A stretch of 46,101 nt of DNA, from NCBI GenBank assembly GCA_016872855.1, contig VGYV01000001.1, forward strand, positions 1 to 46,101, given 5' to 3'. The notes beneath the pieces were generated by a model that had not been told where the DNA came from, ran no database searches, and saw only the letters and a list, made by a program, of their open reading frames with translations. The DNA comes from Planctomycetota bacterium (GTDB taxonomy: Bacteria > Planctomycetota > PUPC01 > DSUN01). Numbering within the stretch: the first letter of the stretch is position 1; each line of letters starts with the position of its first letter. The position numbers were made by a program, and so were the translations under genes. Positions 8,576-23,608 of the stretch are shown here, piece after piece.

Positions 8576-9897
<1,322 letters not shown>

Positions 9898-9901
<4 letters not shown>

Positions 9902-11256
9902 GCGGGCGAGCCACAGTCCTGGTCGCAGACGACGAGCAGTCCATGCGGGACGCGATCTTCCAGGTCCTGGGGCCGGAGGGCTACCAGGTGACGGATGTGG
10001 AGTCGGGCGACGCGGCGCTCGCGGCCATCAAGAGCAGGCCATTCGACCTTGTGATCCTGGACCTGAGGATGCCGCGTGTGGATGGCCTGGAGGTCCTGCG
10101 CCGCATCCAGCAGGATAGCCCTGGTACAGCCGCGGTAGTGATCACGGGCTACGCCACGGTGGAGTCGGCGGTGGAGGCGATGAAGCTTGGCGCTGCGGAC
10201 TTCCTGCCCAAGCCTTTCACCCCGGACGTGCTCCGTCTCACCGTCAGTCGCGCGCTCCGCGGGGCGCGGATGGCCAAGGAGAACCTCCTCCTCAGGTCAG
10301 AGGTCGAGGAGTGCCGGGGCCGCGACTACGAGCTCATCGGCCAGAGCCAGGCGATGCGGCAGATATATGACCTCGTGCGCCGCGTCGGCCCTACAGACAG
10401 CACCGTCCTCATCACCGGCGAGTCCGGCACCGGTAAGGAGCTCGTCGCCCGGGCCATACGCGACCACAGCCCGCGGCGCGAGCGGCCCTTCGTCACGGTT
10501 GACTGCGGCTCACTGGTCGGCACCCTCTTCGAGAGCGAGCTTTTCGGCCACGTCAAGGGCTCTTTCACCGGCGCAACGAGCACGAAGCATGGCCGCTTCG
10601 AGCTGGCCGACGGCGGCACGATCTTCTTCGACGAGATCGCCAACGTGAATCCCGACATCCAGGCCAAGCTCCTCCGGGTGATCCAGGAGCGCGAGTTCAC
10701 CCGGGTCGGCGCCACGCAGGCGATCCCGGTAGACGTGCGGATCATCGCCGCCACGAGCCGGGACCTCCAGGAGGAGATCAGGGAGGGCCGCTTCCGGGAG
10801 GACCTCTTCTACAGGCTGTGCGTGGTGCCGATTGTCCTCCCGCCCCTCCGCCAGAGGCGCGAGGATGTGCCTCTCCTGGCCCATTACTTCCTCCAGAGGC
10901 AGAAGGGCCGGCACGGCAAGAAGCTCCTCGGCTTCAGCCACGAGGCGATGGAGGCGCTCGCTAACTACGATTGGCCTGGCAACGTCAGAGAGCTCCAGAA
11001 CGCCATTGAGCGGGCGATAGTCCTCTCCAGGGGCGACGTGATCACCCCGGCCGACCTCCTCTACTACGGTCCCACCCCCAAGCCGGAAGCCAAGGGCGAT
11101 GGTCTGGCTCCCCTGGCCGCGGTGGAAAGGGAGCACATCGCAAGGGTCCTCGACCACCATGGGGGGAACCGCACTGCCGCGGCCAAAGCCCTGGGGATTG
11201 ACCGCAAGACCCTCTGGCGCAAGATACGCGCGTACGGGCTGGGAGTGGGAGGGTGA
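9898..11256 (+). CDS. sigma54-dependent response regulator (NtrC family; HupR/HoxA-like context)
   Basis: The ATG overlaps the kinase stop (ATGA). It has a receiver (VLVADDEQS...LVILDLRMP), AAA+ Walker A GESGTGKE, an intact GAFTGA-type loop GSFTGA, and a C-terminal HTH AAKALGIDRKTLWRKI. Confidence 0.9.
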
Positions 11257-12587: not shown

Positions 12588-13671
12588 CGAGGAGTGGATG
12601 CGCGACGCTTGCACGCAGATCCTCCAGCGCGAGGGGTTTGAGGTGGCCACCGCCGCCGACGCGCACACCGGGCTAAAGGCCGCGGGAGCGTGTCCGCCGG
12701 ACCTCATCCTGATAGACCTCCGCATGCCCGGGATGGACGGCATGGCATACCTGAAGGCGGTGAAGGCCCTCGACCCCGACATGGTGGGCATCGTGATCAC
12801 GGGCTACGCCACCCTCGAGGCAGCAGTGGAGGCGATGAAGGCCGGGGCATATGACTTCCTGCCGAAGCCCTTCAAGCCCGACGAGTTGCGCGCCCTAGTG
12901 CGGCGTGGGTTGGAGCATCGCCGCGCGGCCCTGCGCGTTTCCGGGCTCCTCCACGGCGAGGCGCGCACCGCCGACCTTTACCTGGCCATGCTCGCGCACC
13001 AGTTCAAGGCGCCCCTTGCTGCGCTCCGCCAATGTGTCGCCGTTGTCCTCCAGGGCTACGCGGGCGACATCAGCCCCCGCGCAAGAGGGATGATCGAGAT
13101 CGCCGCCCAACGGACCGACCAGATGATGCGCTTCGTGGACGATTGGCTCACCCTATCGCGCCTGGAGGAAGGCGAGGAACTCCAGAAGGTGCCCGACCTG
13201 GACCTCGTGGCGCTCGTGCGAAAAGCCCTCGACAGGGTGAAAGAACGCCCGGAGTCCCAGAAGCTCCTCATCCAATGCCTGGTCGTCGAGGACCCCGGCC
13301 CCATCGAGGCCGACGCCGGCGCGCTCGACGAGCTCTTCGCCAACCTCCTCGACAACGCGGTTCGATACACCCAACCCGGCGGCTCCGTCGCCGTGGAGGT
13401 CGGCGGAACAGACCGCGAAGCGTGGGTGAGGGTGCGGGACACCGGCCCGGGCATCTCCCCCGACGACCTGCGGCGCATCTTTGAGCCCTTCTTCAGGGGG
13501 AAAGCACAGAAGGGCATCCCCGGCACCGGCCTCGGGCTGCCCATCGCAAAACGCATTGCCGAGGCGCACCGCGGCAGGATAGAGGTCCAGACCGCGCTCG
13601 GACAAGGCTCCGCGTTCAAGGTCTCCCTCCCTCGCGGAGGGCAACGAGCGCCCGCGAAGAGCGGAGGGTGA
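12526..13671 (+). CDS. hybrid receiver-histidine kinase (REC-HisKA-HATPase)
   Basis: MSERNAQ...VLVVDDEEW...LILIDLRMPGMDG, then H-box-like LAHQFKAPL, then LLDNAVRYT, DTGPGI, GTGLGLPIA. The ATG chosen would overlap the previous gene by 62 nt, so the start is uncertain. Confidence 0.7.
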   Translation: MSERNAQKRHDHLPRVLVVDDEEWMRDACTQILQREGFEVATAADAHTGLKAAGACPPDLILIDLRMPGMDGMAYLKAVKALDPDMVGIVITGYATLEAAVEAMKAGAYDFLPKPFKPDELRALVRRGLEHRRAALRVSGLLHGEARTADLYLAMLAHQFKAPLAALRQCVAVVLQGYAGDISPRARGMIEIAAQRTDQMMRFVDDWLTLSRLEEGEELQKVPDLDLVALVRKALDRVKERPESQKLLIQCLVVEDPGPIEADAGALDELFANLLDNAVRYTQPGGSVAVEVGGTDREAWVRVRDTGPGISPDDLRRIFEPFFRGKAQKGIPGTGLGLPIAKRIAEAHRGRIEVQTALGQGSAFKVSLPRGGQRAPAKSGG

Positions 13672-14579
13672 GGTTGCCCGCAATGGAGACGACCGAAGAG
13701 GCGCGCACAACTGATGGGAAGGTTGGAGCGGTGCTCGTCGTCGGCGGCGGCGTAGCCGGCATGCAGGCATCGCTCGACCTCGCCGAGTCCGGCTACAAGG
13801 TCTATCTGGTCGAGAAGCGGCCCGCCATTGGCGGCGCGATGGCTCAACTAGACAAGACCTTCCCCACCAACGACTGCGCGATGTGCACGCTGGCCCCGCG
13901 ACTGGTGGACTGCGGGAAGCACCCCAACATCGAGAAACTCACCTACTCCGAGCTCCTGGCGCTCGATGGGACCCCCGGGCGCTTCCAGGCCAGGATTCTC
14001 AAGAGGGCTCGCTCCGTTGTCGAAGGCAAGTGCACCGGCTGCGGAGAGTGCATGGCCAACTGCCTGGTGCGGAACCGGGCCTACCTGGAGCCCGAGGAGC
14101 CCGAGCCGCTCGACCTGGCCCCCGATCAACTCGCCGAGGTCAACCGCATCATCGCAGAGCACGGCAACAGGCCGAGCTCAATCGTGCCCGTGCTCCAGGA
14201 CATCAACAACAAGTACCACTGGCTGCCTCCTGGCGCGGTGGGGCGCATCTCCGAGGCCGTGGGACTGCCCCTGGCGCGGGTCCTGCGCATTGCCACCTTC
14301 TACAACATGTTCAGTCTCCAACCCCGGGGCAAACACCTCATCAGGATTTGCCTCGGCACCGCCTGCCACGTCAAGGGCGCGGGCAGGATCGTCGAGAGGC
14401 TCGAGCGCGAGCTCGATGTCAAGGCGGGCGGCACGACCCGCGACAGGCGGTTCACCCTCGAAGCCGTGCGCTGCCTCGGCTGCTGTGGCCTGGCGCCGGT
14501 CGGGACCATCAACGACGACGTCCACGGCAAGATGACCCCGGCACAGTTCGTCAAGGTGCTCGACAACTACCCGGCGTAG
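13668..14579 (+). CDS. fusion protein: HdrA N-terminal FAD/Fe-S fragment + NuoE/HoxE-type [2Fe-2S] thioredoxin-like domain
   Basis: Residues ~20-130 (VLVVGGGVAGMQASLDLAESGYKVYLVEKRPAIGGAMAQLDKTFPTNDCAMC...KCTGCGECMANC) align with the first 130 aa of the HdrA at 28339. The rest (IVPVLQDINNKYHWL...ICLGTACHVKG...RCLGCCGLAP) is NuoE-like. The start may be GTG 13668, TTG 13674 or ATG 13683. Confidence 0.8.
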   Translation: MRLPAMETTEEARTTDGKVGAVLVVGGGVAGMQASLDLAESGYKVYLVEKRPAIGGAMAQLDKTFPTNDCAMCTLAPRLVDCGKHPNIEKLTYSELLALDGTPGRFQARILKRARSVVEGKCTGCGECMANCLVRNRAYLEPEEPEPLDLAPDQLAEVNRIIAEHGNRPSSIVPVLQDINNKYHWLPPGAVGRISEAVGLPLARVLRIATFYNMFSLQPRGKHLIRICLGTACHVKGAGRIVERLERELDVKAGGTTRDRRFTLEAVRCLGCCGLAPVGTINDDVHGKMTPAQFVKVLDNYPA

Positions 14580-14635
14580 CCGCAAGCGTCCCGCTTGCCG
14601 GCTTTCTCGACAACCGAGACGGTTGTCGCTACATC
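14576..14635. repeat. 60-bp double-hairpin REP-like element, copy 1 (intergenic)
   Basis: GTAGCCGCAAGCGTCCCGCTTGCCGGCTTTCTCGACAACCGAGACGGTTGTCGCTACATC. The reverse complement of 18999-19056 is nearly identical. It has two internal hairpins (GCAAGCG-TCC-CGCTTGC and CGACAACCG-AGA-CGGTTGTCG). Confidence 0.85.
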
Positions 14636-14651
14636 GGAGGAAGGCACAGCG

Positions 14652-15035
14652 GTGGGAAAGCTGCGACCCGAGGACATGGACAGGATCGCCGAGAGGATGC
14701 AGAAGGCGATGTCGCTGCGCCTGGGCGCGGGGAGGGTCAAGCTCACTGTCCACATGGGCACCTGCGGCATCGCCGCCGGCGCCCGCAAGATAATGAGCGC
14801 GATCATGCGCTGCCTGGACGAATCCGGGGCCGCCGACGTGATCGTCACCACCTCAGGCTGCGCCGGGCTGTGCAGCAAGGAACCGATGATGACAGTGGAG
14901 CTTGCCGGCCAGGCCCCCGTGAAGTATGTGGACCTCACCGAGGAGAAGGCCACGCGCATTTTCGCCGAGCACGTCGTCAACGGCAAGATTGTCGCCGATT
15001 GCGCACTTGCCATCGGCAGCGAGTGGACGCTATGA
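14652..15035 (+). CDS. thioredoxin-like [2Fe-2S] ferredoxin (HndB-like)
   Basis: The GTG at 14652 follows GGAGGAAGG. The track start at 14595 lies inside the REP element and is unlikely. Motifs are HMGTCGIAAGA...SGCAGLCSKEP. Confidence 0.7.
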   Translation: MGKLRPEDMDRIAERMQKAMSLRLGAGRVKLTVHMGTCGIAAGARKIMSAIMRCLDESGAADVIVTTSGCAGLCSKEPMMTVELAGQAPVKYVDLTEEKATRIFAEHVVNGKIVADCALAIGSEWTL

Positions 15036-16825
15036 ACGCCTATCGCATGCATCTGATGCTGTGCGCCGGAACCGGTTGCGTGTCGAACGGCTCCTACCGG
15101 ATCAAGGCGGCCCTGGAGCGCGAGCTGGCGGCGCGCAACCTCCAGGACGAAGTCGCCGTCGTCATGACAGGCTGCAACGGCTTCTGTGCCCAGGGCCCCG
15201 TGATGACCGTGCAGCCCGATGGCATCTTCTATCAGTTGCTGTCGGATGAAGATATCCCGCACCTTGTCGAAGAGCACTTCCTGAAGGGCCGGCCGGTCAA
15301 GCGCCTCATGTACACCCCGCCCGCCGAAAAGGCGCCGGTGCCGAAGATGAGCGACATCGGCTTCTTCAGGAAGCAGCGGCTCATCGCCCTGCGCAACCGC
15401 GGCCTGATTGACCCTGAGAGGATTGACGAGTACATCGCCCGGGGCGGCTACAAGGCCCTCGTCAAGGCCCTCACCTCGATGAGCCGTGAGGAGATCATCA
15501 ACGAGGTCAAGAAGTCCGGCCTCCGAGGCCGCGGCGGCGCAGGCTTCCCCACCGGGCTCAAGTGGGAGCTCACCGCCAACCAGCCGGGCGACGAGAAGTT
15601 CATCGTCTGCAACGGCGACGAGGGCGACCCCGGGGCCTTCATGGACCGCAGCATCGTGGAGTCCGACCCCCATTCGGTGCTTGAGGGGATGCTCATCGGC
15701 GCGAAGGCAATCGGCGCCACACATGGCTTCGTCTACATAAGGCAGGAGTACCCCCTGGCCCTCGAGAGACTCGCCCTGGCTTTGGGCCAGGCCAGGGACT
15801 ATGGGCTCCTGGGCACCGACATCCTCGGGAGCGGCTTCGACTTCGACATCTCGGTCCACCGCGGGGCCGGGGCCTTCGTGTGCGGGGAGGAGACCTCGCT
15901 CATTGGGTCCCTGGAGGGACGGCCGCCCGAGCCCCGCATCAGGCCCCCCTTCCCTGCCGAGTCCGGGGTCTGGGGGAAGCCAACCTGCATCAACAATGTT
16001 GAGACCTGGGCCACCGTGCCGGAGATCATCAACCGCGGTGCCGAGTGGTTCGCCCAAATCGGCACGGAAACCAGCAAAGGCACAAAGGTCTTCTCCCTTG
16101 TCGGCAAGGTCAAGAACACCGGCCTGGTCGAGGTGCCCATGGGCATCACCCTGCGGGAGATGGTCTTCGACATTGGGGGCGGCATCCAGGGCGACAGGGC
16201 CTTCAAGGCCGTCCAGACCGGCGGCCCATCGGGCGGATGCATCCCGGCCTCTCTCCTCGACCTGCCGATAGACTACGAGCGCCTCACCGAGGCCGGCTCC
16301 ATCATGGGCTCCGGCGGCATGATCGTGATGGACGAGGATACCTGCATGGTGGACGTCGCCAGGTACTTCCTCGAGTTTCTGCGGGATGAGTCCTGCGGCA
16401 AGTGCACCGCCTGCCGGGAGGGCGTGGACGCGATGTACCAGATGGTGGCGAACATCTGTGAAGGGAAGGGCAAGCCGGACGACATCCCGCTGCTTGAAGA
16501 GCTGGGCCAGGCAGTGAAGGACGGCTCGTTGTGCGCCCTCGGCGGAACAGCGCCAAACCCGGTGCTGAGCACCTTGCGCTACTTCAAGGATGAGTACGAG
16601 GCCCACATCACCGACCGCCGCTGCCCGGCCGGCGTGTGCAAGGCTCTCATCACGTACCGCATCAACCCCGAAAGGTGCAAGGCATGCCTCCTGTGCAACA
16701 AGAACTGTCCCACGGGAGCCGTCTCGGGCGAGAAGAAGAAGCCCCAGACGATCGCCCAGGAGAAATGCATCAAGTGCGGGGTCTGCCGGGATGTGTGCAA
16801 GTTCGAGGCGGTGACGGTGCAATGA
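15032..16825 (+). CDS. NuoF/HndC/HydB-type NAD(P)H-binding flavoprotein with N-terminal [2Fe-2S] and C-terminal 2x[4Fe-4S] domains
   Basis: The ATG overlaps the previous stop (ATGA). Motifs: GRGGAGFPTGLKW, NGDEGDPGAFMDR, ESCGKCTACREG, and C-terminal CKACLLCNKNCP / CIKCGVCRDVC. The real gene is the 3' part of track ORF 13883..16825. Confidence 0.9.
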   Translation: MNAYRMHLMLCAGTGCVSNGSYRIKAALERELAARNLQDEVAVVMTGCNGFCAQGPVMTVQPDGIFYQLLSDEDIPHLVEEHFLKGRPVKRLMYTPPAEKAPVPKMSDIGFFRKQRLIALRNRGLIDPERIDEYIARGGYKALVKALTSMSREEIINEVKKSGLRGRGGAGFPTGLKWELTANQPGDEKFIVCNGDEGDPGAFMDRSIVESDPHSVLEGMLIGAKAIGATHGFVYIRQEYPLALERLALALGQARDYGLLGTDILGSGFDFDISVHRGAGAFVCGEETSLIGSLEGRPPEPRIRPPFPAESGVWGKPTCINNVETWATVPEIINRGAEWFAQIGTETSKGTKVFSLVGKVKNTGLVEVPMGITLREMVFDIGGGIQGDRAFKAVQTGGPSGGCIPASLLDLPIDYERLTEAGSIMGSGGMIVMDEDTCMVDVARYFLEFLRDESCGKCTACREGVDAMYQMVANICEGKGKPDDIPLLEELGQAVKDGSLCALGGTAPNPVLSTLRYFKDEYEAHITDRRCPAGVCKALITYRINPERCKACLLCNKNCPTGAVSGEKKKPQTIAQEKCIKCGVCRDVCKFEAVTVQ

Positions 16826-17211
16826 AGCTCGAAGAGGTGCGGAGAACCCTGGACGCTGAGTGGTCTGGCCGCAGGGCAAGCCGCGCGGACTCCATGGGCA
16901 CGGAGGTGCTCTCGTGCCACGCGAGCGACCTGATGAGCGACGTCTTGACCTCCAGGGGCGCGGGCTCGCTCCTCCTCACCGGGCTGACCAACGCCCAGGT
17001 GGTGCGGGTGGCCGTGGTGTCGGACTTCGCCGCTGTCTGCTTCGTCCGCGGCAAGAAACCCCAGTCCGAGGCCGTCCAGGTGGCCGAGGAGAGCCAGATC
17101 CCGCTACTCGTCACGCCCATGTCCATGTACGAGTCTTGCGGCCGCCTCTACACCAAGGGGCTGCCCGTTGGCGACAGAGCAAAGGAAGCTCCGAGTTGCC
17201 AGAAGAAGTGA
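16822..17211 (+). CDS. DRTGG-domain protein
   Basis: ASDLMSDVL...LLLTGLTNAQVVRVA...IPLLVTPMSMYESCGRLY. The ATGA overlaps the nuoF-like stop. Confidence 0.65.
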   Translation: MKLEEVRRTLDAEWSGRRASRADSMGTEVLSCHASDLMSDVLTSRGAGSLLLTGLTNAQVVRVAVVSDFAAVCFVRGKKPQSEAVQVAEESQIPLLVTPMSMYESCGRLYTKGLPVGDRAKEAPSCQKK

Positions 17212-18146
17212 CCAAGATCCAGGAGATGATCTACGAGCTCCTGGTTCGTGAAGTGATGACGAAGGAGGTCATAAGCGTCATGCCCTCCACGCCGATGAGC
17301 GACCTGCGCGAGATCCTGCGCGCCAAGCGAATCTCCGGCACCCCGGTCGTTGAGGACGGCAGACTGGTCGGCATGATCAGCATCGAGGACTTCATCAAGT
17401 GGCTCTTCGACGGCGGCCAGGCCAGCCCCGTAGCCGACCGGATGACGAGCGACGTGAGGACCATCTACGACGACGAGCCACTCGTCCAGGCCGTCAACAA
17501 GCTCGAGCGGCTGGGGTTCGGGCGCCTGCCGGTCGTCGCGCGCGATACCGGGCGCCTCGTGGGGGTCATCACGAAGGGCGACATCATCCGCGGGCTGCTG
17601 AGGCACCTGGAGGTGGACTACCGCAACGCGGAGATGCGGGGGGCAAGGTCGAGCCACATCTTCGAGGACATCCAGGCCGACAGGGCCGCGCTCAAGCTCG
17701 AGTACCAGGTGCGCGGCGGGGACTTCAGCCGGGGCGGCGCCAGCGCCGTCAGGCTCAAGACGACCTTGCTCCGACTGGGCATAGACCCCCAGACGACGCG
17801 CCGCGCCGCCGTCGCCGCCTACGAGGCCGAGATGAACCTCATCGTCTTCACCGAGGGCGGCTGCATAAGGGTCGAGGTCGAACCGGGCATCGTGCGGCTG
17901 CTGGCCGAGGACGACGGCCCCGGCATCCCGGACGTCGAGCGGGCAATGCAGCCCGGCTTCTCCACGGCACCGGACTGGGTGAGGGAACTCGGGTTCGGCG
18001 CGGGAATGGGGCTGCCGAACATCAAGAAATGCGCCGACCGGCTGCGAATCGACTCGGTGGTCGGAAGAGGGACACGGCTGGAGGCCGAAATCCTCATGGA
18101 GCGCCAGGGTGAACCTGAACGAGATAGCGCACAAACTCGGGCTTGA
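17208..18146 (+). CDS. CBS-pair + GHKL (HATPase_c) protein, anti-sigma/serine-kinase-like
   Basis: GTGA overlap start. Two CBS motifs (VMTKEVISV...GTPVVEDGRLVGMIS and MTSDVRTI...LPVVARDTGRLVGVITKGDI), then DDGPGIPD...GFGAGMGLPN. Confidence 0.7.
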   Translation: MTKIQEMIYELLVREVMTKEVISVMPSTPMSDLREILRAKRISGTPVVEDGRLVGMISIEDFIKWLFDGGQASPVADRMTSDVRTIYDDEPLVQAVNKLERLGFGRLPVVARDTGRLVGVITKGDIIRGLLRHLEVDYRNAEMRGARSSHIFEDIQADRAALKLEYQVRGGDFSRGGASAVRLKTTLLRLGIDPQTTRRAAVAAYEAEMNLIVFTEGGCIRVEVEPGIVRLLAEDDGPGIPDVERAMQPGFSTAPDWVRELGFGAGMGLPNIKKCADRLRIDSVVGRGTRLEAEILMERQGEPERDSAQTRA

Positions 18147-18456
18147 GGTGAGAGCCGGCGGCAGCGCCCTGACCACAGAGGTGCGCGGCGGCTACGCCAG
18201 CGACCTCCTCAGCGACGTCATCGCCCACGGCCAGGAGGGGGACCTCTGGGTGACGCTTCAGGCGCACGAGAACACCGTCCCCGTGGCCATCCTGAAGAAG
18301 CTGGCGGGGATAGTCCTGGTGAACGGCCGCGAGCCCGAGGCCGAAACGCTCCAGAAGGCCAGGGCGGAGGATATCCCCGTCCTAGTCAGCGCACTGCCAG
18401 CGTTCGAGCTGATCGGTCGCCTGTACGCCCTGGGCGTGCCAGGAATAAGGACGTGA
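18109..18456 (+). CDS. DRTGG-domain protein (second copy)
   Basis: ASDLLSDVIAH...LWVTLQAHENTVPVA...IPVLVSALPAFELIGRLY, paralogous to 16822..17211. Confidence 0.65.
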   Translation: MNLNEIAHKLGLEVRAGGSALTTEVRGGYASDLLSDVIAHGQEGDLWVTLQAHENTVPVAILKKLAGIVLVNGREPEAETLQKARAEDIPVLVSALPAFELIGRLYALGVPGIRT

Positions 18457-19205
18457 AGGAAGTGCGTGCCGACCTGCACATACACACCTGCCTTTCGCCC
18501 TGCGCGGAGCGCGACATGTCGCCTCCGGCCGTGGTGAGGACGGCTCGTGAGAGGGGGCTGGACCTGATCGCGGTGTGCGACCACAACTCGGCTGAGAACG
18601 TCGGGGCGGCCACCCGCGCCGCACGCGACACCGGCCTGGCCGTCATCGGCGGCATGGAGATATGCACGCGCGAGGAGGTCCACGTGCTGGGCATCTTCGA
18701 CGACGGCCTCGCCCTCAGCTCGGCGCAGCAGGCCGTTTACCAGAACCTCAGCGGCGAGAACAACCCCGAGGTCTTCGGCGAGCAACTCGTGATGAACGAG
18801 CGGGGGGAGGTCGTCGGTCACAACAGCCGACTTCTCATCGGGGCAACCGGCCTGTCCTTGAAGGAGGTGGTCGGAACCATCCACAGCCTTGGGGGCCTCG
18901 CCATCGCCGCCCACGTGGACCGGCCCAGATTCAGCGTCATCAGCCAACTCGGCTTCGTCCCGCCGGGGCTCGAGCTCGACGGGGCGGAGGTGTGCTCTGA
19001 TGTAGCGACAACCGTCTCGGTTGTCGATACCGCGCAAGCGGGACGCTTGCGGCTACCAGAGGGCCTCGCCGTCGTCAGGTCGTCCGACGCCCACCGCCCC
19101 GAGGAGATCGGCTCCAGATGCACCCGTCTCCTCGTGGAGGAGCCGACAGCCTGCGAGGTCGGGAAGGCCCTGCGAAGGATTGAGGGCCGGAGGATTCTTG
19201 TGTAA
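18453..19205 (+). CDS. PHP-domain (polymerase/histidinol-phosphatase family) protein
   Basis: ADLHIHTCLSPCA...IAVCDHNS...AHVDRP...SSDAH metal-ligand pattern. The reading frame runs through REP copy 2. Confidence 0.75.
   Translation: MKEVRADLHIHTCLSPCAERDMSPPAVVRTARERGLDLIAVCDHNSAENVGAATRAARDTGLAVIGGMEICTREEVHVLGIFDDGLALSSAQQAVYQNLSGENNPEVFGEQLVMNERGEVVGHNSRLLIGATGLSLKEVVGTIHSLGGLAIAAHVDRPRFSVISQLGFVPPGLELDGAEVCSDVATTVSVVDTAQAGRLRLPEGLAVVRSSDAHRPEEIGSRCTRLLVEEPTACEVGKALRRIEGRRILV
18999..19056. repeat. REP-like element, copy 2 (inverted, inside the PHP gene)
   Basis: Reverse complement of copy 1 with a few changes. It encodes ...DVATTVSVVDTAQAGRLRLP... of the PHP protein. Confidence 0.85.
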
Positions 19206-19714
19206 TGGAAGACCTGTCGCTTCACATCCTCGACATTGTGGACAACTCGCTTCGTTCCGAGGCGAAGCTGGTGGAGATCTCACTCGTCGAGGACACTGAG
19301 CAGGACCTGCTCACGCTCGAGGTGAGGGACGACGGGAAGGGCATGCCGGCCGAGGAGTGCGCTCGGGCGGCCGACCCGTTCTTCACCACCAAGCCGGGGA
19401 AGAGGTTCGGCCTCGGCCTGGCGCTCCTGGCTCAGGCGACCAGAGAGGCCGGGGGAGAACTCAAGGTGTCCTCCTCCCCAGGTGCTGGGACGACGGTGCG
19501 GGCGACCTTCCGCTACGGCCACCCCGACCGCAAGCCCCTGGGCGACATGGCGGCAACGCTGGAGACGCTGGTGGCAGGACACCCCGAGGTTGCCTTCGTC
19601 TACGAGCACAGGCGGGTGCCCCGGGCACCCGGAGCCGGCGACGGGTCGGGCAACGGGCGCACAGATGTTGCTCTGCTCGATACCAGGAAGCTGAGGCGGC
19701 CATGGTCAACCTGA
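19205..19714 (+). CDS. small GHKL-type ATPase (HATPase_c-only protein)
   Basis: LHILDIVDNSL (N-box-like), RDDGKGMP, GLGLALL. The ATG overlaps the previous TAA by 1 nt. Confidence 0.65.
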   Translation: MEDLSLHILDIVDNSLRSEAKLVEISLVEDTEQDLLTLEVRDDGKGMPAEECARAADPFFTTKPGKRFGLGLALLAQATREAGGELKVSSSPGAGTTVRATFRYGHPDRKPLGDMAATLETLVAGHPEVAFVYEHRRVPRAPGAGDGSGNGRTDVALLDTRKLRRPWST

Positions 19715-22700
19715 CGATTGACGGCCAGCAGGTGGGTGTGGAGCCCGGCACGAGCGTGTTGGATGCATGCCGGAAGCTGGGGATGAAGATCCCCACGCTG
19801 TGCCACCATAGGTCGCTGCCGGCCTACGGCGCCTGCCGGCTCTGCCTCGTCGAGGTCGAGGAGCGCGGTCGGAGCAGGATTCAGGCCTCCTGCCTCTACC
19901 CGGCGCGGGAGGGCCTCGTGGTGCGCACGAACACCGACGCGGTCGTCCGCACGCGCCGCATCATTGCCGAGTTGCTCCTGGCCCGCTGCCCAAGTTCCGA
20001 GAAGGTCAGGGAGGTGGCCGCGGAGCTAGGCGTTAGCGAGACCAGGTTCCCGAAGAAGAACGAGGACTGCATGCTCTGCGGCCTGTGCATCAGGGTCTGC
20101 TCCGAGCTGATGAAGAGCGGGGCGATCGACTTCTCCGCTCGCGGCAACCGGCGCAAGGTCGGCCCGGCCTACGACAGACGTTCGCCTGTGTGCATGGCCT
20201 GCGGCGCTTGCCAGGTGGTCTGCCCGACTGGGGCGGTTGACCTCAGCAAGGTCTCCGCGCGCGAGCCACGGCCCACACCAGCGCACTTCGACGCGGGACT
20301 CGTCCCGCGCCCCTCAATCTACATCCCGTACCCCCAGGCCATACCCAAGGTGCCAGTCATTGATCGCGAGACGTGCATGTACTTCCGCAAGGGCGAGGCG
20401 GTGGCCGCGTGCAGGTCGTGCGCCAACTTCTGCGAGGCCAAGGCCATTGATTACACCCAACAGGACAGTGCCCTTGCCCTGGACGTGGGCGCCGTGGTGA
20501 TCGCGCCGGGCTTCGAGATCTGCGACCACACCCTGCGTGCAGAGTACGGCTTCGGGCAGTACCCGAACGTCATCAGCAGCCTCCAGTTCGAGCGCCTGCT
20601 TTCCGCCAGCGGGCCGCATCAGGGCCATGTCGTGCGCCCGTCCGACGGCAAGGAGCCCAGGCGCATCGCCTCCATCCAGTGCGTAGGCTCGCGCGAGGAC
20701 GAGGCCAGCTACTGCTCCTCCGTGTGCTGCATGTACGCCGTCAAGCACGCCCTCATGGCAAGAGAGCACCTGCCAGGGGTCGAGCACACGGTCTTTTTCA
20801 TGGACCTCAGGGCCTTTGGAAAAGGCTTCGACGCTTATTACGAGCGCGCCCAGCACGAGGGGGTGCGCTTCGTGCGGGCGCGCCCCGCAACCGTCGAGGA
20901 ACTCGCCGAGGAGCATAACCTCCGCATCAAGTACCTCAACGAGCAAGGCGAGTTCAAGGACGAGGAGTTCGACCTCGTTGTGCTCTCGTGCGGCATGCGG
21001 CCCTCGCCGGGCGCCGCGGAGGCGGCCGAGCGGCTCGGCGTGGCCCGCGACGAGGACGGCTACAGCCTTGTTGAGCGCCTTGCCCCCCTGGATACGAATC
21101 GCGCCGGCGTCTACGTGTGCGGCCCGTTTGCGGAGCCGAAGGACATTCCCGAGACAGTCATGCAGGCGAGCGGCGCCGCCGCGCGCGCCATGGCCCTCCT
21201 GGCCGAGGCGCGTGGCACCATGGTGCAGCCGAAGCATTACCCGCCCGAGAGGGACGTGTCGGGCGAGGAGCCCAGGATCGGCGTCTTCGTCTGCCACTGC
21301 GGGCGCAACATTGGCGGGGTGATCCGCGTCCCGGAGGTCGTGGAGTACGCCCGGAGCCTGCCCAATGTGGTCCACGCCGAGGAGAACCTCTATACGTGCT
21401 CCACGGACAGCCAGCAGAAGATCCGCGAGGCGATTGAAAAGCACAGGCTCAACCGCGTCCTGGTCGCCTCCTGCACGCCGCGGACCCACGAGCCGCTGTT
21501 CCGCGACACCCTGCGCGAGGCGGGCCTGAACCAGTACCTCTTCGAGATGGCTAACGTCCGCGACCAGTGCTCCTGGGTGCACATGCACGAGCCCGACAAG
21601 GCGACGGCCAAGGCCAAGGCCCTGGTCCGCATGGGAATCGCAAAGGCTCGCCTCATCGAGCCGCTTGCGGAACGAACGCTCCCGCTGAACCACGGCGCGC
21701 TGGTCATCGGCGGCGGGCTTGCCGGGATGACCTCCGCGCTCGCCCTGGCCGACGAAGGCTTCAACGTCCACCTCATCGAGCGCGAGGCCACCCTCGGCGG
21801 CCACGCTAAGCACGTGCAGTACCTCCCAGGCGGGGAGAACCCGCAGGCATTCCTTGCGGAGACGATCCGGCGGGTCCTGGACCACCCACGCATCGCCGTC
21901 CACCTCGGCGCCACCCTTGCCCGCCTTGAGGGGTTCGTGGGCAACTTCAAGACCCAGCTCAGCAGGAACGGCACCACTGAGGAGGTAGAGCACGGGGTGA
22001 TTGTGGTGGCCACGGGCGCCCAGACCCACAAGCCGACCGAGTACCTCTACGGCGAGAACGAGCGGGTGGTGACCCAGGTGGAGTTCGAGCAGATGCTCGC
22101 CGCCGGGGGCGTAGAGGCGGAGAATGTCGTGATGATCCAGTGCGTCGGCTCGCGCGACGACACCCGCCCCTACTGTAGCCGGCTGTGCTGCTCGCACGCC
22201 ATCCGCAACGCCTTGAAGCTCAAGGAGCTGCGCCCCCACGCCAACGTCTTCGTACTCTACCGCGACGTGCGCACGTACGGGTTCCGCGAGAAGTACTACC
22301 GCCTCGCGCGCGAGAAGGGCGTGCGGTTCATCCGCTACGAGCCGGAGCGCAGGCCGGTCGTTTCAGCTGAAAATGGCAAGCTGCGCGTTACGACGTGGGA
22401 CCCGATCCTTGAGAGGACGCTGGCGATTGATTGCGACCGGCTGGTGCTCTCGCCTGCCATCGTGGCGCGAGAGGACGGTCAAGCGCTTGCGCAGATGCTC
22501 AAGGTGCCGCTGAACCAGGAGCGCTTCTTCCTGGAGGCGCACCTGAAGCTGCGGCCGGTGGACTTCGCGACCGACGGCGTGTTCCTGTGCGGCCTGGCCC
22601 ACGCGCCCAAGACCCTCGACGAGACGCTCGCCCAGGCCACTGCCGCCGCATCCCGCGCGGCGACCATTCTCGGCAAGGACAAGCTCCCGCTGGAGTCGGC

Positions 22701-22947
22701 CATCTCCGAGGTGATTGACGCGAACTGCGACGGCTGCGCCTATTGCATTGACCCGTGCCCGTACAAGGCGCTGACGCTCATCGAGTACATGCGGGGGGGC
22801 GCGATCAAGAAGACCGTGGAGACCAACGAGGCGCTCTGCAAGGGCTGCGGCGTGTGCCAGGCCACTTGCCCCAAGCGCGGCATCTTCGTCCGCCACTACA
22901 AGCTCGACCAGATCGCCGCAGTGGTGGCTGCCGCACTGGAGCCATGA
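19702..22947 (+). CDS. hdrA: fusion protein: NuoG/HydA-N-terminal [2Fe-2S]+[4Fe-4S] ferredoxin module + HdrA lacking its N-terminal ~130 aa + second HdrA-like flavoprotein module
   Basis: The ATG at 19702 lies inside track ORF 19357..22947. MVNLTIDGQQV...CHHRSLPAYGACRLCLVEV is NuoG-N-like. From RPSIYIPYPQAIPKVPVID onward it is collinear with residues ~140-1001 of the HdrA at 28339 (SLQFERLLSASGPHQGH, CVGSRE, GPKDIPE, IGVFVCHCGRNI, THEPLF, VIGGGLAGM...). Confidence 0.85.
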   Translation: MVNLTIDGQQVGVEPGTSVLDACRKLGMKIPTLCHHRSLPAYGACRLCLVEVEERGRSRIQASCLYPAREGLVVRTNTDAVVRTRRIIAELLLARCPSSEKVREVAAELGVSETRFPKKNEDCMLCGLCIRVCSELMKSGAIDFSARGNRRKVGPAYDRRSPVCMACGACQVVCPTGAVDLSKVSAREPRPTPAHFDAGLVPRPSIYIPYPQAIPKVPVIDRETCMYFRKGEAVAACRSCANFCEAKAIDYTQQDSALALDVGAVVIAPGFEICDHTLRAEYGFGQYPNVISSLQFERLLSASGPHQGHVVRPSDGKEPRRIASIQCVGSREDEASYCSSVCCMYAVKHALMAREHLPGVEHTVFFMDLRAFGKGFDAYYERAQHEGVRFVRARPATVEELAEEHNLRIKYLNEQGEFKDEEFDLVVLSCGMRPSPGAAEAAERLGVARDEDGYSLVERLAPLDTNRAGVYVCGPFAEPKDIPETVMQASGAAARAMALLAEARGTMVQPKHYPPERDVSGEEPRIGVFVCHCGRNIGGVIRVPEVVEYARSLPNVVHAEENLYTCSTDSQQKIREAIEKHRLNRVLVASCTPRTHEPLFRDTLREAGLNQYLFEMANVRDQCSWVHMHEPDKATAKAKALVRMGIAKARLIEPLAERTLPLNHGALVIGGGLAGMTSALALADEGFNVHLIEREATLGGHAKHVQYLPGGENPQAFLAETIRRVLDHPRIAVHLGATLARLEGFVGNFKTQLSRNGTTEEVEHGVIVVATGAQTHKPTEYLYGENERVVTQVEFEQMLAAGGVEAENVVMIQCVGSRDDTRPYCSRLCCSHAIRNALKLKELRPHANVFVLYRDVRTYGFREKYYRLAREKGVRFIRYEPERRPVVSAENGKLRVTTWDPILERTLAIDCDRLVLSPAIVAREDGQALAQMLKVPLNQERFFLEAHLKLRPVDFATDGVFLCGLAHAPKTLDETLAQATAAASRAATILGKDKLPLESAISEVIDANCDGCAYCIDPCPYKALTLIEYMRGGAIKKTVETNEALCKGCGVCQATCPKRGIFVRHYKLDQIAAVVAAALEP

Positions 22948-23374: not shown

Positions 23375-23608
23375 ATGGCGCCGCAAGACGTCCGGTTCTT
23401 CGAGGGGCGCAAGTTCATGTGGGACGGCGAGGCCTACCCGTCCCGCGACGCTGCCGAGGCAAAGCGAAAGGAGTACACCGACAACCGGTTCGAGACCCAG
23501 CTCATCGAGGAGGATGGCGCCTTTCTCGTGTACACGAGGCGGGTGGTGACGGAGGTGGTGGTCGAGGGTGACGGGCTGCCCATCGCTGGCGATGGGCGCC
23601 CGGCCTGA
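23375..23608 (+). CDS. small hypothetical protein (77 aa) between mvhD and mvhG
   Basis: The ATG is preceded by AGGAG at 5-nt spacing. MAPQDVRFFEGRKFMWDGEAYPSRDAAEAKRKEYTDNRFETQLIEEDGAFLVYTRRVV... No family recognised. Confidence 0.5.
   Translation: MAPQDVRFFEGRKFMWDGEAYPSRDAAEAKRKEYTDNRFETQLIEEDGAFLVYTRRVVTEVVVEGDGLPIAGDGRPA

Follow-up and report, generated by a model that had tools for sequence, protein, structure and literature searches.

A five-gene cassette within a NuoEF-HdrA-Mvh operon

We analysed a 46,101-nucleotide stretch of a Planctomycetota genome (GenBank assembly GCA_016872855.1, contig VGYV01000001.1; hereafter the window; G+C content 66%), in which five co-directional open reading frames (ORFs) occupy positions 16822–19714 between a nuoF-like gene and a nuoG::hdrA fusion. 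Annotation with Pfam profiles gives the order DRTGG, CBS pair fused to a GHKL ATPase, DRTGG, PHP and GHKL. This cassette had been proposed from the sequence alone (the original prediction); its coordinates and its position between the nuoF-like and NuoG::HdrA genes proved correct on checking the ORFs and the Pfam content of the flanking genes, and all five domain assignments hold, those of the DRTGG proteins additionally by fold. Dozens of species show the identical order of genes, and the arrangement is therefore not a matter of chance. The five genes are:

16822–17211, forward strand: DRTGG1, 129 amino acids (Pfam DRTGG, E = 1.5e-4)
17196–18146, forward strand: CBS-CBS-GHKL protein, 316 amino acids, TTG start with an alternative GTG at 17208
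18109–18456, forward strand: DRTGG2, a paralogue of DRTGG1, 115 amino acids (Pfam DRTGG, 4.6e-5)
18453–19205, forward strand: PHP metal-dependent phosphoesterase, 250 amino acids (Pfam PHP 1.7e-7, PHP_C 5e-5)
19205–19714, forward strand: stand-alone GHKL ATPase, 169 amino acids (Pfam HATPase_c 1.8e-18, HATPase_c_3 6e-8)

Overlapping junctions had also been claimed, and every junction does overlap or abut. The stop of nuoF and the start of DRTGG1 share ATGA, the DRTGG1 and CBS-GHKL ORFs overlap by 16 nucleotides and the CBS-GHKL and DRTGG2 ORFs by 38, DRTGG2 and PHP meet at GTGA, PHP and GHKL at TAATG, and GHKL overlaps nuoG::hdrA (start at 19702) by 13 nucleotides; the five cassette genes are translationally coupled to one another and to the structural operon around them. 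None of the five proteins reached the cut-off of an NCBIfam family. Of the PADLOC defence models only Ppl was matched, weakly and in part, by the PHP protein (20.7 bits); the remaining four had no match, and on this outcome a reading as anti-phage defence was rejected.

The cassette accompanies the NuoE/NuoF module in many phyla

One genome per species was scanned with the CBS-GHKL protein, which has a relative in at least 572 species, and the best 80 loci were taken with 10-kb flanks. These loci, found via CBS-GHKL alone, one per species, and annotated with the window's own proteins, represent the closest species, Firmicutes and Thermotogae loci not being among them, and cover at least 10 phyla (Planctomycetota, Chloroflexota, Acidobacteriota, Bacteroidota/Ignavibacteria, Cloacimonadota, Nitrospirota, Spirochaetota, Gemmatimonadota, Bipolaricaulota, Desulfobacterota and others). 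The full set, CBS-GHKL with its four companions, is present in 65 of the 80, NuoE/NuoF lies within ±10 kb in 67, and a small 2Fe-2S protein stands alongside the cassette in 63; seven of the 13 loci lacking NuoEF end at a contig boundary within ~4 kb. By chance, a nuoF gene would be expected in ~1–2% of random 20-kb windows of a 4-Mb genome with ~3 nuoF genes. The cassette is therefore tied strongly and non-randomly to NuoEF-type operons instead of being scattered among genomes without regard to them.

The redox partner beyond NuoEF is far less constant. The original prediction had remarked on the [NiFe]/HdrA context of the window. That context is not special: the window's architecture (HdrA-N::NuoE, 2Fe2S, NuoF, the five genes, NuoG-N::HdrA, MvhD) is found gene for gene in 18 of the 80 species, from at least 8 phyla, and continues with orf77, MvhG, MvhA and HycI wherever the fetched stretch extends. 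Chloroflexota loci follow another order, with four cassette genes, then NuoE, GHKL, 2Fe2S, NuoF, a NuoG-like gene and [NiFe]; in one Chloroflexota locus (L061) the third partner is an [FeFe] HydA, and NiFe-HydABCSL-like enzymes and other fusions occur elsewhere. Because the partner enzyme varies, the cassette tracks the NuoE/NuoF (BfuBC) module and not hydrogenase as such. Of the predicted association with NuoEF-type hydrogenases, the NuoEF linkage stands, whereas hydrogenase as the constant partner does not, [FeFe], [NiFe] and complex-I/Fdh-type NuoG enzymes all taking that place. Similar gene sets at [FeFe] HydABC operons, also foreseen, are on record (PMC3315566, PMC3561251, PMC8163306), the part of that claim that concerns Firmicutes and Thermotogae resting on these papers together with L061.

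Five Nitrospirota loci (L049–L052, L062) carry the full cassette 5′ of nuoE-2Fe2S-nuoF and a complex-I-type NuoG with NADH-G_4Fe-4S_3, Fer4_Nqo3 and a molybdopterin domain (NuoG/Fdh type), with a NuoD-like gene nearby; the context there is respiratory-complex-I-like and not that of a hydrogenase. In four Anaerolineae loci (L008, L013, L021, L038) a short version, DRTGG1 and CBS-GHKL with or without DRTGG2, stands without PHP, the second GHKL or NuoEF directly 5′ of an NAD(P)H-linked [NiFe] hydrogenase that is group-3b-like, its beta subunit being of the Fer4_22 type and its gamma subunit FNR-like. DRTGG1 and CBS-GHKL may thus be the minimal functional unit. In addition, 18 of the 80 loci have near the NuoEF-HdrA-Mvh operon a sigma-54 activator whose input is an N-terminal NAD-binding Rossmann domain (GFO_IDH_MocA/DapB_N-like) in place of a receiver (e.g. 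L030:1165-2526). This activator is a candidate for regulating the transcription of such operons in response to NAD(H).

Interchangeable sensors on one GHKL domain

The source genome holds a second, paralogous cassette on contig C414 (L084:2200-7444), in the order DRTGG, GHKL::2x[4Fe-4S]::Fe_hyd_lg_C::C-terminal FeS, DRTGG, PHP, GHKL, NuoE and 2Fe2S. Its fused GHKL is 50% identical to residues 169–300 of the window's CBS-GHKL, and the partner to which it is fused has, judged by sequence, the group-D-like domain make-up of the putative sensory [FeFe]-hydrogenases (group D, M2e; 'C1' in HydDB). Proteins of that group are encoded upstream of bifurcating HydABC enzymes, as with TamHydS of Thermoanaerobacter mathranii, TTE0887, Csac_1857 and Cthe_0335, and are here called HydS. 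The window cassette has no Fe_hyd_lg_C domain of the group C/D sensory type by Pfam, and the CBS pair stands in its place. In two further genomes of the phylum (G016, G050) the GHKL has a small gene of its own, after which comes a distinct HydS-like gene, and a DRTGG gene lies 5′ of NuoE. Contig C414 ends after 2Fe2S, and contig C151, which begins with nuoF, may be its continuation.

The SpoIIAB-like GHKL, as we call this domain after its closest relative (see below), thus has an interchangeable input, being fused to a CBS pair, fused to HydS or encoded separately next to HydS; all three forms occur within one phylum and two of them in one genome, and in nearly every case the domain lies between two paralogous DRTGG genes. 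Such swapping is the pattern of an input domain and a transmitter, and favours a signalling role.

The cassette is also optional. The source genome has at least six nuoF paralogues and two cassettes, counts that are lower bounds since the assembly (G000) is fragmented (1143 contigs, 89.5% complete, 5.8% contamination). Among 121 evenly sampled genomes of the phylum, HydB-type NuoF (E < 1e-150) is present in ~50 and cassette-type GHKL in 5, two of which (G016, G050) have the GHKL ~5 kb from nuoF. Such optional occurrence is more in keeping with a regulator than with an assembly factor that is obligatory.

We consider it somewhat more probable than the reverse that the five genes form a dedicated signalling, post-translational regulatory accessory module of the NuoE/NuoF (BfuBC-type) NAD(H)/ferredoxin module, with the CBS pair as its adenosine-nucleotide input. 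This reading draws on the conserved linkage, the interchangeable sensors, the intact motifs of both GHKL proteins and of PHP, and the lack of any DNA-binding or sigma component in the set; given this last feature, the module most likely acts on the enzyme rather than on transcription.

The SpoIIAB-like GHKL and its CBS pair

The TTG start of CBS-GHKL is consistent with its homologues (alignment A1), which form a large family of more than 7000 homologous 90%-clusters, the top 120 at 57–88% identity. Pfam recovers both CBS domains (E = 8e-30), HATPase_c (3e-8) and HATPase_c_2 (1.6e-4); the CBS pair and HATPase_c, like HATPase_c of the stand-alone GHKL and PHP/PHP_C of the phosphoesterase, score above the Pfam thresholds. 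For the GHKL part the best PDB match is SpoIIAB (1l0o etc.; E = 1.5e-8), and the curated relative of this CBS-linked GHKL is likewise SpoIIAB (TIGR01925), so that its predicted likeness to an anti-sigma-type serine kinase is upheld by both the closest solved and the closest curated relative. Alignment A1 shows the N-box (E210/N214), G1 (D239-G241-G243) and G2 (G266-G272) to be invariant. The ribose-phosphate motif G-h-h-S/T-x-x-D is present in both CBS motifs, with G59-S62-D65 and G123-T126-D129 invariant or nearly so in the same alignment, and these residues are compatible with binding of an adenosine ligand. A HisKA/DHp domain with a phospho-accepting His gave no Pfam match in either GHKL protein.

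The kinase-like domain invites comparison with the SpoIIAB-SpoIIAA-SpoIIE and RsbW-RsbV-RsbU systems, which share with the cassette a small GHKL domain of the serine-kinase type, small single-domain flanking proteins and a phosphoesterase in the operon. The cassette differs from them in having DRTGG and not STAS proteins, PHP and not PP2C, no sigma target, and a sensor fused to the kinase. No STAS antagonist of the SpoIIAA/RsbV type was matched next to the GHKL by Pfam or fold, and neither PP2C nor a cognate sigma factor is present in the window or among the families that six or more of the 80 loci have in common. Of the partner-switching that had been predicted, what remains is a SpoIIAB-like GHKL with its ATP motifs, the STAS, PP2C and sigma components having been looked for and found absent; the cassette lies outside the canonical family and is partner-switch-like at best. 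A non-canonical switch acting on the enzyme, in which DRTGG would replace STAS, PHP would replace PP2C, and CBS or HydS sensors would drive a SpoIIAB-like kinase that gates NuoEF, is a tentative possibility that we hold to be doubtful.

The resemblance to SpoIIAB also raises the prospect of transcriptional control, with the GHKL serving as an anti-sigma factor or feeding an unlinked Rex, AraC or sigma-54 activator. An AraC regulator flanks TamHydS (PMC8163306), and the Rossmann-type sigma-54 activator near 18 of the 80 operons could fit such a scheme. However, sigma factors, STAS, Rex and AraC are all missing among the families that six or more of the 80 loci have in common (Rex being possible in other lineages), the cassette sits inside the very structural operon that it would control, and transcription in the window is already controlled from upstream by a HupUV-like sensor together with a histidine kinase and a sigma-54 regulator. 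We regard transcriptional control as the least probable of the explanations considered here, with only a slight chance of being right.

The DRTGG proteins

Both small flanking proteins are DRTGG domain members, as judged by profile matches of orthologues and by fold. In the window they score 22–23.7 bits, slightly below the PF07085 gathering cut-off of 25.2, whereas 38 of 39 DRTGG1 orthologues match PF07085 (best E = 6e-10), and the AlphaFold model of DRTGG1 (AF2, pLDDT 91.8) finds DRTGG structures as its top PDB matches in Foldseek (3l2b and 2ioj, the latter with TM 0.73/0.78), ahead of the N-domain of HPr kinase (HPrK/P). The two paralogous DRTGG proteins of the original prediction, sub-threshold in Pfam, are thereby confirmed. 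A STAS-like fold was ruled out by the same fold matches. DRTGG1 has an invariant D36-L37-x-S39 ('DLMSDVL'; alignment A2), and DRTGG2, which is conserved in 70 loci, the motif 'GGYxSDLLSxV'. The CBS-DRTGG insert of family II (CBS-) pyrophosphatases (3l2b/3l31), which supplies the top structural match of DRTGG1, is likewise a unit of an adenine-nucleotide-responsive CBS pair and DRTGG; there the two are fused within one enzyme, whereas in the window they are separate proteins accompanied by GHKL and PHP.

The PHP protein

The metal-ligand set of the PHP protein (HxH, DH, E, H, H, DxH) is complete, with H9, H11, D43, H44, E69, H77, H154, D212 and H214 conserved to 95% or more across 68 orthologues, which by sequence makes it a member of the PHP superfamily. 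Among solved and curated proteins it comes closest to nucleotide phosphoesterases (3e0f, 2yb1, RNase AM, EndoQ and, in NCBIfam, 3′,5′-nucleoside bisphosphate phosphatase), in every case far short of the family cut-off. PHP protein-tyrosine phosphatases of the CpsB/YwqE type are absent among its PDB and NCBIfam matches. The original prediction had cast it as the phosphatase that accompanies a kinase; its nearest relatives are 3′,5′-bisphosphate nucleotidase, RNase AM and EndoQ and not protein phosphatases. The best sequence matches are to the TrpH/YciV type (Cv1693, RNase AM), which shares the PHP fold and the complete metal ligands; the likeness is confined to the N-terminal ~80–90 residues and scores 54.9 bits against a cut-off of 400, and the window protein belongs to a distinct subfamily with a PHP_C tail.

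These relatives are the starting point for a nucleotide signalling loop that needs no protein phosphorylation, in which PHP would degrade an adenosine ligand (pAp, Ap4A or a cyclic or linear dinucleotide) sensed by CBS and DRTGG, and the GHKL domains would be ligand-controlled binding switches. The affinity of PHP to 3′,5′-nucleoside bisphosphate phosphatase and RNase AM/RNM, the invariant 'GhhS/TxxD' ribose-phosphate motifs of the CBS pair, and the structural relationship of DRTGG to the 3l2b insert of a nucleotide-regulated pyrophosphatase and to the HPrK/P N-domain all agree with such a loop. The conserved set, however, contains no ligand synthase, the short version upstream of group-3b hydrogenases has no PHP, and neither GHKL protein varies in the N-box, G1, G2 or the acidic N-4 residue, which suggests ATP turnover or transfer as opposed to binding only; we therefore judge the loop very unlikely.

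The PHP gene of the window contains a repeat element:

18995–19027, no strand assigned: REP-like element of 33 nucleotides, an in-frame insertion in a variable PHP loop

An inverted copy, 97% complementary to it, lies at 14607–14639 at the NuoE/2Fe2S junction. The insertion adds ~13 amino acids as an extra loop that is missing in the closest orthologues, and it leaves the catalytic residues unaffected.

The stand-alone GHKL protein

The small GHKL protein opens directly at a MutL-like motif I ('LDIVENSxxAGA') and has histidine-kinase-like 'DPFFTT' and 'GLGL' boxes; D10, N14, D42-G44-G46, G69-G71 and D108 are invariant (alignment A3). Its model (AF2, pLDDT 89.8) predicts a Bergerat fold with a small C-terminal alpha/beta subdomain of ~60 amino acids, and Foldseek matches it to CA domains of histidine kinases over ~100 columns and to MutL/TopoVI-B/PMS2 N-domains over 170–205 columns. 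Residues 104–114 form a near-invariant loop, 'SH(I/P)DRKPLGD', after the ATP-binding domain; its spacing of S, H, R, P and L recalls the histidine-kinase H-box SHxLRTPL, but it lies C-terminal to the CA domain, and the model shows it as a loop that is ordered rather than as a DHp helix.

By position and domain type alone, the small protein resembles HydE of Acetobacterium woodii, whose hydC-hydE-hydD-hydB-hydA1 operon likewise has a stand-alone histidine-kinase-type ATP-binding domain and a HydD-type protein among the NuoE and NuoF genes. The NuoE-GHKL-2Fe2S-NuoF core of the Chloroflexota loci reproduces the published hydC-hydE-hydD-hydB order (PMC3315566). In the window the GHKL follows PHP, whereas HydE is placed between the NuoE and 2Fe-2S genes. 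HydE is not contained in the purified hydrogenase and was described as serving 'assembly or signalling' (PMC3315566).

The first of these two words corresponds to another explanation, an assembly, maturation or repair machine that would load or repair the FMN and Fe-S cofactors of NuoEF/BfuBC, the GHKLs being chaperone-like ATP clamps, PHP a nucleotide or cofactor phosphoesterase and DRTGG a nucleotide- or cofactor-binding adaptor. Besides the A. woodii authors having left 'assembly' open for HydE (PMC3315566), the translational coupling of the genes between structural subunits, the MutL/GyrB-like motif I ('lDivENSxxAGA') with the long MutL/TopoVI-B matches, and the nearness of PHP to nucleotide phosphoesterases speak for it. 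Its weakness lies in the distribution: the cassette is found in ~10% of HydB-type-NuoF genomes of the phylum sample and at 2 of 6 nuoF loci in the source genome (lower bounds, as above), and the interchange of CBS and sensory hydrogenase on one GHKL is typical of signal input and not of chaperones. HydABC enzymes have also been made heterologously without such genes. Assembly is accordingly an unlikely function in our assessment.

A proposed signalling route to NuoEF

For the post-translational regulatory module that we favour, the following route may be suggested. The CBS pair would bind an adenosine ligand (AMP, ADP, ATP or similar) and set the state of its GHKL, which would bind and/or phosphorylate the DRTGG proteins, the candidate site being the invariant Ser of 'DLMSD'. 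PHP would reset the system, either on the protein or through hydrolysis of the nucleotide ligand, and the HydE-like GHKL together with the small 2Fe-2S protein would relay the state to NuoEF. Electron flow through the bifurcating module could in this way be switched post-translationally by energy charge, or by H2 in the HydS version. The sensing of energy charge and a phosphorylation of hydrogenase subunits, both raised in the original prediction, are likewise hypothetical.

Several points weigh against this proposal. DRTGG is not known to act as a kinase substrate, and its conserved Ser may instead have a structural or ligand-related role throughout the family. The proposed phospho-relay is without precedent, as STAS, PP2C, sigma factor, DHp/H-box and response regulator are all missing from the set. 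PHP is by sequence nearest to nucleotide phosphoesterases, and the MutL-like motif I and GHL fold matches of the small GHKL model point to an ATPase clamp, not a kinase. Tight translational coupling within a structural operon fits subunits or assembly factors too, and two loci (L029, L080) carry the cassette without a redox partner within 10 kb.

NuoEF/BfuBC electron-bifurcating enzymes set the NADH/ferredoxin/H2 balance in many anaerobes, and the wiring proposed here, from a sensor through the SpoIIAB-like GHKL and DRTGG, PHP and the HydE-like GHKL to NuoEF, is testable. The comparative forms suggest that energy charge can stand in for H2 as the input. The locus adds a further copy to a set that is already widespread, and the value of the finding lies in the comparative pattern.

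Relationship to sensory hydrogenase clusters and previous literature

Sensory hydrogenases and kinases upstream of bifurcating hydrogenases have been described (PMC3561251), and as of 2026 the literature still lists the signalling partners of HydS from group D as unknown (PMC13104023; also PMC8163306). The sensory hydrogenase clusters share with the window a kinase-like ATPase and small accessory genes beside NuoE/NuoF-type subunits, and the window has the traits of the HydS-associated cassette of NuoEF (BfuBC) operons, a type without a formal family, with a SpoIIAB-like GHKL between two DRTGG genes, PHP and a HydE-like GHKL, adjoined by NuoE, 2Fe-2S and NuoF. It differs in that HydS is absent and CBS is fused to the GHKL, in that the cassette lies inside the operon and not upstream, and in its enzyme, a NuoEF-HdrA-Mvh [NiFe] system, unlike the HydABC of the HydS clusters. 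Since the GHKL occurs fused to or beside HydS, we propose it, on the evidence of gene fusion and neighbourhood, as the direct partner of HydS-type sensors. If the doubtful non-canonical switch described above were real, the GHKL::HydS and GHKL::CBS fusions would reveal the signalling partner that has long been sought for the sensory [FeFe]-hydrogenases of group D. The hfsABCD cluster of Thermoanaerobacterium was considered as an instance of the same cassette and rejected, as it has HydS-PAS and a PP2C-type phosphatase.

The [FeFe]/HydS form beside bifurcating hydrogenases has been in print since ~2010–2012, with function unknown (PMC3561251, PMC3315566). A literature search on DRTGG, PHP and CBS with hydrogenase found no paper treating the cassette, which is not discussed in the Bfu-family review or the Hydrogenedentota paper either; nor did the literature searched contain anything on the CBS form, the link to a NuoEF-HdrA-Mvh [NiFe] system or the partner-independent tie to NuoEF.

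Operon context in the window

By Pfam annotation, the centre of the window is one long co-directional operon, in which the cassette is flanked by the following genes:

13668–14579, forward strand: HdrA N-terminal fragment fused to NuoE (2Fe-2S_thioredx 1.4e-48, FAD Rossmann fragment; Pfam)
14595–15035, forward strand: small thioredoxin-like [2Fe-2S] protein, HydD-like (Pfam 1.2e-4; NCBIfam 2Fe-2S ferredoxin 2.6e-9)
15032–16825, forward strand: NuoF/HydB (BfuB)-type flavoprotein (Complex1_51K 4e-46, NADH_4Fe-4S 2e-32)
19702–22947, forward strand: NuoG-N ferredoxin module (Fer2_4/4Fe4S; Pfam) fused to HdrA

The NuoF-like protein has an N-terminal 2Fe2S domain and C-terminal 2x4Fe4S by Pfam. Upstream, at 5.4–11.3 kb, lie the HupUV-like sensor hydrogenase, a PAS kinase and the sigma-54 regulator (the activator at 9862–11256, of the receiver type), followed by two receiver proteins. 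Downstream of NuoG-N::HdrA come MvhD, orf77, MvhG, MvhA and HycI, and then a second Hdr/Flx-like block. The HdrA-N::NuoE fusion is kept in at least 20 related loci, and the split HdrA is therefore a stable feature of this operon type.

Between mvhD and mvhG, at 23375–23608, orf77 encodes 77 amino acids with no Pfam or NCBIfam match. Homologues are found in 10 related loci, in nine of which (L001, L007, L011, L019, L020, L026, L031, L036, L039) they also lie between mvhD and mvhG; because they recur at that position, the ORF is a conserved small protein of the operon type. In L030 and L039 a match is located, also or instead, upstream of the NuoE gene.

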